Positions 14,969 through 19,299 of a stretch of DNA of 19,299 nucleotides are shown piece by piece (position 1 is the first letter of the stretch; each line of letters opens with the position of its first letter). A program made the position numbers and the translations under genes. Location: NCBI GenBank assembly GCA_037443365.1, contig JBBIOM010000025.1, forward strand, positions 10,865-30,163. The letters run 5' to 3'. The notes under the pieces were generated by a model, which was not told where the DNA came from, ran no database searches, and saw only the letters and a program-made list of their open reading frames with translations. The DNA comes from Armatimonadota bacterium. Its GTDB lineage: Bacteria; Sysuimicrobiota; Sysuimicrobiia; Sysuimicrobiales; Humicultoraceae.

Positions 14969-15747
14969 GCAGGGAGGCCGCGCTGATCGAGCCGGGGCGC
15001 TGGAAGATCTGGGCGGGCGCTGGCCTGTTCGCCGTTGTGTTCGTCTGGTCGGCCCGCGGCGTGGAGGCCAGTCTTGCGCGGTTCATTGAGGGGTTGCCGC
15101 TGCTGGCCCGCATACTTGTCCTGATGCTCGTTCCGGACTGGTCCTGGGCCGGACGATCGCTTTCGGGCATGGTTGTGTCGGTGCAGGTGGCGCTCCTGGG
15201 CACCACGGTCGGCATGCTGCTTGCCTTCCCGCTGGCGTTCCTGGCGGCGCGAAACATCGCTCCCCACCCGGCATCGAGCTACCTGGGCAAGCAGGTGCTC
15301 AACCTGATACGTACCTTCCCCGAGATCATCCTTGCCATCTTCTTTGTCGCCGCCTACGGACCAGGAGCCCTGGCCGGCATGATGGCGATCGGGCTTCACT
15401 CCACGGGCAGCCTGGGCAAGTTGTACGCCGAGGCGGTTGAGACGATCGACCCGGGCCCGCTCGAAGCCCTCCGCGCCGCCGGAGCCAACCGGATCAAGAC
15501 CTTCTGGTTCGCCGTGCTTCCACAGGTGATGCCCGAGTTCGCGGCGCTGTCGCTCTACCGATTCGAGATAAACTCCCGCGCCGCGACCGTGCTGGGGCTG
15601 GTTGGAGCGGGCGGAATCGGCACGATCATGGTTCAGGCCCTGCAGTTCCGCCGGTGGGAGGTCGTGGGCATGGCCCTGATCGTGATCATCGCGGTCGTCA
15701 CCCTCATTGACACGGCCAGCGCAGCCCTGAGACGGCGCCTGGTCTGA
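14965..15747 (+). CDS. phnE: Phosphonate ABC transporter permease (second copy)
   Basis: IRTFPEI, GPGALAG, GKLYAEAVETID, YRFEINSR, GLVGAGGIG; ATGA overlap with the first phnE. Confidence 0.93.
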   Translation: MSREAALIEPGRWKIWAGAGLFAVVFVWSARGVEASLARFIEGLPLLARILVLMLVPDWSWAGRSLSGMVVSVQVALLGTTVGMLLAFPLAFLAARNIAPHPASSYLGKQVLNLIRTFPEIILAIFFVAAYGPGALAGMMAIGLHSTGSLGKLYAEAVETIDPGPLEALRAAGANRIKTFWFAVLPQVMPEFAALSLYRFEINSRAATVLGLVGAGGIGTIMVQALQFRRWEVVGMALIVIIAVVTLIDTASAALRRRLV

Positions 15748-15824
15748 GGCCTCTCATCGGGCAGGCAGGAAGTGGGCGGCCGGGCGGGTAACCCTGTCCT
15801 CAAACCGAACTGGAGGTGGGTGCC

Positions 15825-16052
15825 GTGGTCTCAGCTATGGTGCTGATCAAGACGGGTCCGGGCCAGGCCCGCCGCGCGGCGATCTCCATCCGGAAGATCA
15901 AGGGCGTTCGTGAGGCGCATGTCGTTACCGGTCCATACGACATCATCTGCAGGACCGAGGCAGGGGACATGACAGCGCTTGCCGACACGGTCATCTCAAA
16001 GATCCAGAGGACCCCTGGAGTCACCGACTCGCTGACCTGTCTGGTGGTGTGA
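15825..16052 (+). CDS. Stand-alone Lrp/AsnC ligand-binding (RAM) domain protein
   Basis: AMVLI.T.PG, I.GV.EAHVVTGPYDII, IQ..PGV..S.T; GGAGGT 7 nt before GTG 15825; no HTH. Confidence 0.88.
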   Translation: MVSAMVLIKTGPGQARRAAISIRKIKGVREAHVVTGPYDIICRTEAGDMTALADTVISKIQRTPGVTDSLTCLVV

Positions 16053-16074
16053 CCGGCCGGGGGTCAAACAAGGG

Positions 16075-16102
16075 TTGACAAGCAGGGGTCGCCCACTATA
16101 AT
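16075..16102 (+). promoter_or_regulatory. Consensus sigma70 promoter, probable rRNA promoter
   Basis: TTGACA (16075-16080), 16 bp spacer, TATAAT (16097-16102); 16 bp spacers are typical of rrn promoters. Confidence 0.88.
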
Positions 16103-16120
16103 GAGGGTTGGCCCGGACAC

Positions 16121-16215
16121 AAGGAGCTGATTGGGTGGTTCAGCCGAGCGCATAAATCGCATACGGCATCCCCGATGAGCGTTCCAGAGGGGAACGAGCT
16201 CATCCCCTCTTTTTT
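16121..16215 (+). promoter_or_regulatory. Attenuator-like leader: SD + mini-ORF + alternative hairpins
   Basis: AAGGAG 16121-16126; GTG GTT CAG CCG AGC GCA TAA 16135-16155; 16174-16185 can pair with 16123-16132 or with 16191-16204. Confidence 0.5.
16186..16215 (+). terminator. Intrinsic terminator in the 23S leader
   Basis: AGAGGGGA-ACGAGCTCA-TCCCCTCT followed by TTTTT. Confidence 0.7.
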
Positions 16216-16327
16216 GTGCCCTGCCCCGAGCCCTGCCGCCGAACCGCGGAGGCAGTGCTCGGAGAGAACGCCTCAATGTTCCTGCCGGCGGCCCCGGCTG
16301 GATCCGTCGCAAGAGCGGTGACGGGGC

Positions 16328-16344
16328 GAACCTTGACAACCGAA
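16328..16344 (+). promoter_or_regulatory. boxA-like / rRNA processing-stalk element
   Basis: GAACCTTGACAACCGAA resembles the CTTTGAAAACTGAA-type motif upstream of bacterial rRNA genes; ~95 nt before the 23S 5' end. Confidence 0.6.
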
Positions 16345-16433
16345 GATGGACGAAGACATCCCGACCCGCGGGGAAAGAAGGCCCGGCGGGAAGGTGGTGT
16401 GTTGCCAGGCTCTATACAGCTGCTCCTAGGGCG

Positions 16434-18527
<2,094 letters not shown>

Positions 18528-19245
18528 AGGACCGGGTGCTGCCCCGGAAGGGCCGTTACAAAATCCGGCTATATGCTGGAACGGCTCGTGGATCCCACGC
18601 TACCCCTGAAAGCCGCCATCGCTCTGCCGATGGGAGGTGGGAGGGGTGACAACGCGATGGGTGGAGCAAACCAGCAGGAAAGGCTCTCGAGCACAGAGCA
18701 GCTGAAGTGGTTTCTGGCGGGATTCGTCGAGGGAGAAGGAGCCCTCTGCGTTAGCATCAAGGAGCATCCGACTGCAAGGTTCGGCTACTACGTCGATCCT
18801 GAGTTCTTCCTGTATCAGCACGCGAGCGGGCTGAGAATCCTTGAGCTGGCAAGGACGCTCTTTCGAGGTGGACGGATCGCGGTCAAGCCAGGGAGTCAAT
18901 GCGTGCTGGTGTACTCAATTGGTCACCAACGCACTCTTGCCGAGGAGGTCGTTCCCTTCTACGAGAGGTACGTGGCTCGGTTCGCATGCAAGAGGGAGAC
19001 CTTCGAGGCATTCAGAGAGATACTGGCGAGACTGAACCGCAAAGAGCACTTCAGTGCCCGGGGAATGCTTCGCATCGTTGAGAGGGCGTATGCGATGAAT
19101 CCCGACGGCAAGGGTCGTCGGCGGCTGAGGCCGCTGGCGGTCGTGCGAGAGAGAATCCTCAGAGGCCATACGCCGGACTCGCAAGCCCCTCAAGGCTTGG
19201 GATGAAGATATGGTCCAGTCCTCATGGCGACATGAGAGGCGACTG
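18528..19245 (+). mobile_element. Group I intron at 23S position L1923 (718 nt)
   Basis: Splits TAACGGT^CCTAAGG; P1 TAACGGT/GCCGTTA (18552-58) with U-G pair; P3 TCCGGC/GCCGGA; P4 TGCTGG/CCAGCA; P7 GGCCAT/ATGGTC; P9 CTCATG-GCGA-CATGAG; terminal G at 19245. Confidence 0.95.
18657..19205 (+). CDS. Single-motif LAGLIDADG homing endonuclease, I-CeuI-like
   Basis: WFLAGFVEGEGALCVSIK, VDPEFFLYQH, G.I..KPG, VVPFYE; start uncertain (in-frame ATG at 18573, 18630, 18657). Confidence 0.9.
   Translation: MGGANQQERLSSTEQLKWFLAGFVEGEGALCVSIKEHPTARFGYYVDPEFFLYQHASGLRILELARTLFRGGRIAVKPGSQCVLVYSIGHQRTLAEEVVPFYERYVARFACKRETFEAFREILARLNRKEHFSARGMLRIVERAYAMNPDGKGRRRLRPLAVVRERILRGHTPDSQAPQGLG

Positions 19246-19299
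<54 letters not shown>

Follow-up and report, generated by a model that had tools for sequence, protein, structure and literature searches.

How might a cell whose 16S and 23S ribosomal RNA (rRNA) genes lie apart keep the two ribosomal subunits in proportion? Linked 16S-23S-5S operons are thought to ensure equal rRNA amounts, and unlinked rRNA genes are common in free-living bacteria; the available passages of the study that describes them (bioRxiv 10.1101/705046) name no mechanism that balances the rRNAs of unlinked genes. The question is raised here by a stand-alone 23S rRNA gene in a genome of the uncultured phylum Sysuimicrobiota (an Armatimonadota bacterium of the family Humicultoraceae; assembly GCA_037443365.1, contig JBBIOM010000025.1, positions 10,865 to 30,163 of the forward strand). 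In this stretch of 19,299 nucleotides (nt), hereafter the window, a sequence-only reading had described a short leader element ahead of the 23S gene, with a promoter, a Shine-Dalgarno (SD) sequence, a minigene, an antiterminator, a terminator and a U-tract arranged as in an attenuator. We find this layout in the window and conserved among its relatives. From comparison of these sequences, we give roughly an even chance to the view that the element attenuates transcription under the control of translation, as part of the leader of a 23S(-5S) rRNA unit that stands alone.

Distribution of the element and evolution of its mini-frame

BLAST with positions 16060-16440 found one place in the element's own genome and matches in 20 of 41 relatives (19/24 of the same family). 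A covariance model, R1, built from 19 aligned copies, has one hit in the own genome; of the 34 genomes of the family, 25 contain exactly one copy, and in the phylum set it matches 35 of 94 genomes, in two of seven families (f1, 24/33; f2, 10/22; f4, 0/23; f5, 0/12; three other families, 0/3). There is one copy per genome except in G037 (f2), which has two element-plus-23S loci. Conservation across 35 of 94 related genomes places the element far beyond chance. Most of these genomes are fragmented assemblies, and the misses in f1 and f2 may be unassembled rRNA loci; genome G024 supplies one row of alignments A1, A2 and A4, none of our claims resting on it alone. An exact-pattern scan of the genomes of 185,579 species returned 22 stretches, 18 of which match R1 at E ≤ 5e-6, and the same pattern in metagenomes returned 55 stretches, 44 of them matching R1. 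The matching records are Candidatus Fervidifonticultor, Ca. Calidihabitans and metagenome-assembled genomes labeled 'Armatimonadota bacterium'; both Candidatus names occur in the available passages of the description of phylum CSP1-3/Sysuimicrobiota (PMC11604079), a paper that also describes enrichment cultures of the phylum. Pattern matches in contigs of Chitinophagales, Latescibacterota, Dehalococcoidia and Hyphomicrobiales match R1 weakly or not at all and were set aside as chance.

The minigene, or mini-frame, was examined with its two ends located independently of frame. The start position was defined as the first ATG or GTG 5-9 nt past the SD pentamer, with ATC or CTG taken where neither was present, and the stop as a TAA, TGA or TAG ending 15-20 nt ahead of segment 2, the 5' strand of the antiterminator. 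The stop, which lies in a hairpin loop, is in frame with the start-position codon in all 64 full-length copies, and in 54 of the 64 it is the sole stop triplet of its search window. The start-position codons are GTG (45 copies), ATC (16), CTG (2) and ATG (1), so that 46/64 are canonical (GTG or ATG); the stops are TAA (59), TGA (4) and TAG (1), and never a sense codon. Frame length varies, with sense lengths of 15 nt in 14 copies, 18 nt in 18, 21 nt in 21, 27 nt in one, 30 nt in two and 33 nt in eight, and the distance from the stop to segment 2 stays at 15-20 nt despite this variation. A tree was made solely from sequence beyond the element, with 58 of the 64 rows (six with less than 250 nt downstream were excluded); on it, parsimony requires at least 13 length changes and at least three stop changes. 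A conservative count on well-supported branches leaves at least five length changes, corresponding to p ≤ 0.004 if the phase were free. The letter ahead of the stop, in GGN, takes all four values, and the 3' partners of GTG switch between A and G while GTG itself stays. GGAG of the SD is invariant in the 19-sequence alignment and nearly so in the family as a whole, and the 3' end of the own 16S rRNA carries the anti-SD CACCUCCUUUCU. The stop remaining in frame despite varying frame length indicates that the mini-frame is translated; it evolves in the frame-like manner expected of the proposed minigene, and translation is what we infer from this.

Other frames do not share this behavior. The alternative frame that had been suggested from the TTG at 16131 (16131-16178, MGGSAERINRIRHPR) is open in four of the five distinct own-genus rows (L027, L028, L031 and L032), and runs on without a stop in L033; none of the remaining 59 distinct full-length rows has it, which makes it a feature of the own genus only. 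A leaderless long frame from the conserved NTG near the transcription start site (TSS) is in frame and open in the window's genus and in part of the second family; in many other copies it is blocked by stops or out of frame, and it was rejected. In the window's genus, TTG at 16108-10 is in frame with the mini-frame and gives a 15-codon frame.

Two folds and the path to the 23S gene

Three helices had been proposed for the leader, namely 1:2, which ties the SD and start region to segment 2, the antiterminator 2:3, and the terminator 3:4. All three exist in the window and beat shuffled sequences. The antiterminator, which overlaps both terminator arms, has an energy of -15.2 kcal/mol (z -4.78) that none of 200 shuffles reached. 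The terminator (-12.3 kcal/mol, z -2.77; 4/200 shuffles as good) was missed by a terminator scanner because the latter allows loops of 3-8 nt and the actual loop has 9. The long hairpin that contains 1:2 scores -24.8 kcal/mol (z -2.57; 3/200 shuffles as good), and the whole 112 nt -43.6 kcal/mol (z -2.43; 3/200); the minimum-energy form combines 1:2 with the terminator. The inner hairpin alone is not above chance (-7.1 kcal/mol, z -1.08).

Among the relatives, a CCCCTC arm followed by a T-rich run, mostly of five or six T, was found in 36/36 loci. The antiterminator is 99.7% paired over 63 distinct sequences and shows compensatory changes in two of five pairs (AU to GC in seven cells, GC to CG in one), with no A-C combination; the inner stem is 81.5% paired, with both-sided changes in three of four pairs. 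The RNAalifold consensus is the antiterminated fold, comprising 2:3, the SD-like purines paired with CUCUUU, and a helix closing the 5' and 3' ends. All five whole-structure measures lie above 500/500 shuffles and all slid controls, with the caveat that the alignment had been fitted to the antiterminated structure. Constrained folding to the terminator 3' arm gave a mean energy difference between the terminated state (A) and the antiterminated state (B), E_A - E_B, of -1.7 kcal/mol (range -9.7 to +6.7), state A being the lower in 22/36 loci. The modeled near-equality of the two states fits a bistable element. Of the proposal, the existence of the three helices in the window, the covariation of 2:3, and the conservation of the SD, the minigene layout and the terminator held; helix 1:2 and the terminated state as a whole fared less well, as discussed below.

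Wherever the sequence suffices, a 23S gene lies downstream of the element. The gap between terminator and 23S is 111-246 nt in 24/36 loci (5' end found by pattern), and Rfam places a 23S downstream at 17/20, 7/13 and 4/6 loci, the misses being contig ends or non-members. Rfam finds no 16S within 1.5 kb upstream at any of 20 loci. The promoter ahead of the element is the sole 12/12 match in 15500-16600 (shuffles: mean 0.1) and the only perfect one among four promoter-like sites in the whole window, the remaining three scoring 9/12; a TTGACA -35 and a TATAAT-like -10 are present at 36/36 related loci. No second promoter (TTGACA/TATAAT-like, at least 9/12) was found between the terminator and the 23S in any of 36 loci. 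In four loci the boxA-like motif, the presumed rRNA antitermination signal, begins 16-19 nt past the terminator and leaves no space for a further promoter. TTGACAA does occur downstream of the terminator in 31/36 loci, and a second promoter starting from the TTGACA within boxA was considered and rejected, there being no -10 at 16-18 nt in 36/36 loci. With no second promoter between terminator and 23S, the 23S needs readthrough, in agreement with the sequence-only reading. Behind the U-tract follows GTGCC, whose G, T, G and final C are invariant in 19/19 sequences. It can pair with the 5' end (GGC 16110-12, CAC 16118-20) in readthrough RNA only, and the closing 5'/3' helix that contains it is 95.8% paired and recurs in the RNAalifold consensus.

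The own 16S gene is on another contig (L088, contig C40, 600-2560, minus strand). Its unit has a promoter (TTGACA-17-TATAAG), a plain leader of ~125 nt with boxA CCTTGACAACCGCATAG and no attenuator, and a terminator made of a 12-bp hairpin and a U-run about 110 nt past the 16S. Remains of an old spacer seem to be split between the 16S and 23S units. At one f2 locus (L064 2400-5773, minus strand), a 16S gene is followed by two open reading frames (ORFs), one of 203 amino acids (aa) with a GCFWC motif, which we take to be MsrA-like, and one of 160 aa, then by the promoter, the element and a 23S gene; the 16S and 23S share orientation, and this arrangement may be an intermediate stage of unlinking. 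By comparison, 16S and 23S are linked in three genomes of element-free families (f5, f4 and f7), with a spacer of roughly 200-290 nt, and the boxA motif is present in both linked-operon spacers read (f5 and f4); this comparison comprises three genomes, and the pattern may reflect a single evolutionary event. In the soil metatranscriptome run X16, a relative's contig of 326 nt (depth 12.2) spans 16320-16468, from the leader into the 23S, and a similar depth is seen over about 16172-16233, the terminator region, possibly on the same contig. This may at most be a hint of readthrough RNA, as DNA carry-over is possible and contigs cannot prove a single transcript.

Table 1. Features of the 23S leader and its neighborhood, in window positions
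Feature	Positions	Strand	Details
Upstream gene	15816-16052		78-aa stand-alone Lrp/AsnC ligand-binding domain, PF01037, E 4.2e-14
Sigma-70 consensus promoter	16075-16102	+	TTGACA 16075-16080, 16-nt spacer, TATAAT 16097-16102
Predicted TSS	about 16109-16111	+	about where the leader element begins
Whole conserved leader element	16110-16220	+	~TSS through GTGCC behind U-tract; covariance model R1 121.6 bits
SD-like AAGGAG	16121-16126	+	8 nt ahead of GTG
Long hairpin incl. helix 1:2	16123-16185	+	16123-16139 (SD 3' part, spacer, GTG) with 16168-16185 (incl. segment 2)
Mini-ORF GTG GTT CAG CCG AGC GCA TAA	16135-16155	+	6 sense codons; stop in apical loop of inner hairpin
Inner hairpin	16143-16167	+	GCCG-A-GCG / CGC-AUA-CGGC, 7-nt loop CAUAAAU
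Antiterminator hairpin 2:3	16174-16204	+	GATGAGCGTTCC 16174-16185 with GGAACGAGCTCATC 16191-16204; 12 bp, 2-nt bulge
Intrinsic terminator	16186-16215	+	AGAGGGGA 16186-93, 9-nt loop, TCCCCTCT 16203-10, T-run 16210-16215 (six U)
Conserved GTGCC behind U-tract	16216-16220	+	alignment of 19 sequences
boxA-like CCTTGACAAC	16331-16340	+	motif common to own 16S leader and relatives' spacers; presumed rRNA antitermination signal
23S rRNA gene	16436-19299	+	Rfam RF02541, 1620.6 bits, model positions 1-2003; truncated by window end

Coordinates of the leader and its neighbors are collected in Table 1; the letters quoted in the sequence-only reading were all present when 15700-16700 was read. The upstream gene ends 22 nt before the -35 hexamer. 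A coding sequence homologous to it by alignment lies upstream of the element in several relatives, and this AsnC-type gene also has a GGAGG 8 nt ahead of its own GTG. An Rfam match to c-di-GMP-II-GAG at 16008-16067, inside the end of the upstream gene and outside the element, was dismissed as chance (19.4 bits against a 40-bit threshold, E 0.39), and no tRNA genes were found in the window. At about the TSS, NTGG(C/T) (window 16108-16112), with N being T, G, C or A, is kept 5-6 nt past the -10 hexamer. Between terminator and boxA, a block at 16271-16329 is kept in the first family; it consists of CCTCAATGTTCC (16271-82) and two G+C-rich hairpin-like repeats, GCCGGC..CCCGGC and GGATCCGTCGC..GACGGGG, and may be boxB-like or the strand of a processing stem. 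Our boxA label for CCTTGACAAC presumes the E. coli and Bacillus consensus. The 23S match extends over 2864 nt for model positions 1-2003 only, so that about 860 extra nt are inserted. A 234-aa ORF within the gene (18501-19205) matches LAGLIDADG_1 (E 2.6e-9), which suggests a homing endonuclease carried by an intron or intervening sequence; in 17800-19299, Rfam lists no separate match at E ≤ 0.01.

Proposed mechanism and competing explanations

In the mechanism that we propose, the RNA would start at the consensus promoter and its first ~105 nt could fold in two ways. Without a ribosome (state A), the long hairpin would form first, tying the SD, the spacer and GTG to segment 2 and sequestering the UCC toehold along with the segment 2 GAU; the terminator and U6 would be free to form, and RNA polymerase would stop ahead of boxA and the 23S. 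In state B, segment 2 would pair with the terminator 5' arm, loop and 3' arm as the antiterminator, the SD-like purines would pair with the freed CCCCUCU, and polymerase would continue. The effector would most likely be the translation machinery, with a 30S subunit or ribosome loading at the SD and GTG and translating the frame of 5-11 codons to the loop stop. Anywhere on the frame up to that stop, a ribosome would occupy the 5' strand of the hairpin. Because the stop sits 15-20 nt before segment 2 whatever the frame length, its leading edge would fall short of segment 2, which would then be free to pair with GGA(A/U)...GCUCAUC, giving readthrough and transcription of the 23S. In readthrough RNA, the pairing of the SD with CCCCUCU and the closed ends would shut the frame off on the long precursor. 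Likewise predicted are termination at the U-tract, which way the effect runs, and any physiological role, for instance keeping 50S in step with 30S. The sequence-only reading had gone on to propose free 30S as the signal and balancing of unlinked rRNA genes as the purpose. This is conjecture, and the one circumstantial point in its favor is that the element co-occurs with unlinked 23S. That the leader directly senses free, initiation-competent 30S, with a 30S or ribosome on the mini-frame licensing each round of 23S-5S transcription, strikes us as rather doubtful; it would be consistent with the module occurring only where the 23S is unlinked, with the 16S unit being without it, and with a ribosome on the frame favoring readthrough.

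Several observations weigh against a translation-gated switch. All 16 distinct second-family copies have ATC at the start position, and two first-family copies have CTG only. The ATC (e.g. L055 1501-1620, L056) lies 7-8 nt past GGGAGGG and in frame with the loop TAA, and it also pairs with the GAU of segment 2; it could be a non-canonical, IF3-sensitive start or merely the pairing partner of that GAU. The peptides, of 5-11 residues, are variable and not conserved, and no repeated or regulatory codon runs were found in them. Two pooled copies have GGGGGG instead of GGAGG, which points away from translation, and GGAGG, being complementary both to the UCC after segment 2 and to CCCCUCU, can be explained as their partner. 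The loop and internal-loop letters AGCGG, UAA and AUACG are conserved in the 19-sequence alignment and could be contacts for another ligand. Helix 1:2, which had been expected to hide the SD, is not family-wide, with a mean z of -0.5 and z < -1 in 30% of 63 sequences; within the window's genus its complementarity does exceed that of shuffles (z -2.2 to -3.5), and it is strong also in the group with 15-nt frames. The terminated-state structure, drawn by hand on the model-fitted alignment A2, is as a whole not better than shuffles, in a test that is weak either way since helix registers differ among groups. Part of the sequence pool was gathered by a pattern in which the terminator and most of segment 2 are fixed, with R and Y positions free, so that these parts look more invariant than they are. 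The downstream-sequence tree behind the parsimony counts has 14 unresolved forks. Finally, the RNA runs that matched share only small parts of the query, and the assembled contigs of four metatranscriptome runs are dominated by 23S of other organisms and are silent on termination.

Some of these points speak for the same terminator/antiterminator switch under another effector. Candidates are a small molecule, nucleotide-dependent polymerase kinetics, or a protein, for example a GGA-binding regulator, an assembly factor or a ribosomal protein. On this view the resemblance to an SD and an ORF would be a by-product of how the strands pair, as the two complements of GGAGG, the pairing of the second-family ATC and the weakness of 1:2 in many lineages might suggest, and the conserved AGCGG, UAA and AUACG exceed the needs of a frame that is merely translated. 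This explanation, which we think unlikely, leaves unaccounted for the start-stop distance that changes in steps of three and a loop triplet that is TAA, TGA or TAG only. The searches also speak against it: no Rfam riboswitch or leader matches at the gathering threshold, and none matches the element at E up to 10 (15950-16460). The best E-value for sequence resemblance or complementarity of the element to the own 16S, the own partial 23S and a relative's 23S-5S is 0.61, and a motif search found none; mimicry of an rRNA site and antisense to rRNA were rejected on this sequence-level test, a structural mimic being beyond its reach. It is also conceivable that the leader structure is constitutive and non-regulatory, a pause, folding or processing module whose terminator is poor in vivo and which, for example, helps to load the boxA antitermination complex or is removed in maturation. 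The 23S, as the most transcribed gene of the cell, must pass this site; GTGCC past the U-tract pairs with the 5' end in readthrough RNA only; and one copy of G037 (L071 6219-6262), which has a degraded U-run, TTTTCATG, and GTCTT in the place of GTGCC, may be read through constitutively. BoxB-like hairpins sit before boxA in E. coli rrn leaders, and in some loci the hairpin of the element, 16-19 nt before boxA, has just such a position. Against this stands the conserved, covarying helix that disrupts a terminator, together with near-equal energies of the two states, which is the signature of a switch. A U-run of five or six directly behind a G+C-rich stem is conserved as well, and the module is not needed by the own 16S leader or by the linked-operon spacers. 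We accordingly place little credence in a constitutive leader.

Least probable, in our estimate, is an independent gene for a small RNA or a tiny protein that ends at its own terminator, its position before the 23S being incidental or leak-through only adding to 23S transcription. Such a gene would be in keeping with the strong promoter and the canonical terminator some 105 nt beyond it, and trans-acting RNAs derived from attenuators are known, e.g. rnTrpL (available passages of PMC6614838). Yet every copy with enough downstream sequence is directly before a 23S, in single copy save for the two in G037, no other 23S promoter was found in 36/36 loci, and the peptide sequence is not conserved. 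A leader is favored over a stand-alone small-RNA gene because GTGCC beyond the terminator is conserved and pairs only in readthrough RNA.

If ribosomes or 30S subunits do set the switch, as the translation-gated reading would have it, this would constitute direct feedback from the translation machinery onto rRNA transcription and the first rRNA synthesis gated by ribosome binding to pre-rRNA. A lineage with a split rRNA operon would then slave its 50S rRNA output to the 30S supply, a mechanistic answer to the stoichiometry of unlinked rRNA genes, and if 30S sensing holds, the ATC start of the second family could add IF3 dependence. In the full-text literature searched, no attenuator or translated frame in an rRNA leader, and no feedback of this type, is described; most subscription journals fall outside this coverage, and a prior description is possible. 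The words terminator, unlinked and CSP1-3 are absent from a survey of rRNA leader-trailer helices across phyla (PMC11404451).

Comparison with known systems

The closest layout is that of the leader-peptide attenuators (trpL, pheL, hisL, thrL, ilv and pyrBI; available passages of PMC3082878 and PMC6614838). Like them, the element has a frame with SD, start and stop ahead of a mutually exclusive antiterminator and terminator, and its 5' segment is predicted to be occupied by the ribosome as theirs is. They control biosynthetic operons, whereas the element precedes rRNA, lacks regulatory codon runs and encodes an unconserved peptide. Of the hallmarks of a classical attenuator, the leader ORF upstream of the terminator and the exclusive 2:3 and 3:4 hairpins are present and the regulatory codons are absent. 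In trp, a ribosome at the stop favors termination; in the element, whose stop precedes segment 2 by 15-20 nt, readthrough should be favored by any ribosome on the frame, so that the signal would be translation or initiation itself, not charged tRNA.

In attenuators with an upstream ORF (uORF) that respond to stress or antibiotics, readthrough is set by what the ribosome does on the frame. The element likewise combines a very short frame with an intrinsic terminator, as in bmrB-bmrCD, vmlR and yxjB/tlrB (available passages of PMC6851288) and in the whiB7 uORF (available passages of PMC10274678). These systems depend on stalling by drugs or starvation and serve resistance or regulator genes; the element has no conserved stalling motif, and its target is 23S rRNA. 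Leaders bound by ribosomal proteins, namely L20 at B. subtilis infC (PMC1865079), L10(L12)4 at rplJL (PMC4538822; both from available passages) and L4 at S10, are terminator/antiterminator switches too and tie the synthesis of ribosome components to assembly status. They mimic an rRNA site and control protein genes, whereas for the element no resemblance to rRNA was found at the sequence level, and it would control rRNA itself. The rrn antitermination leader (boxB-boxA-boxC with Nus factors; available passages of PMC10250234 and PMC2724277) is, like the element, part of an rRNA leader, and a boxA-like CCTTGACAAC, shared with the rRNA leaders and spacers of the lineage and of putative function, follows the element. 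This motif is, however, downstream of the element and not part of it; the element lies upstream of boxA, and neither the own 16S leader nor the linked-operon spacers contain it. Unlike in the rrn leader, polymerase would meet its terminator before an antitermination complex could form.

In summary, a lineage with an unlinked 23S gained a consensus promoter together with a terminator that is conserved and switchable, and with a frame whose evolution looks like that of a translated one. The known part of this is the layout of a leader-peptide attenuator; the differences are the lack of regulatory codons, a stop placed for readthrough upon translation, and an rRNA target. The arrangement suggests that ribosomes themselves gate large-subunit rRNA synthesis in this phylum.

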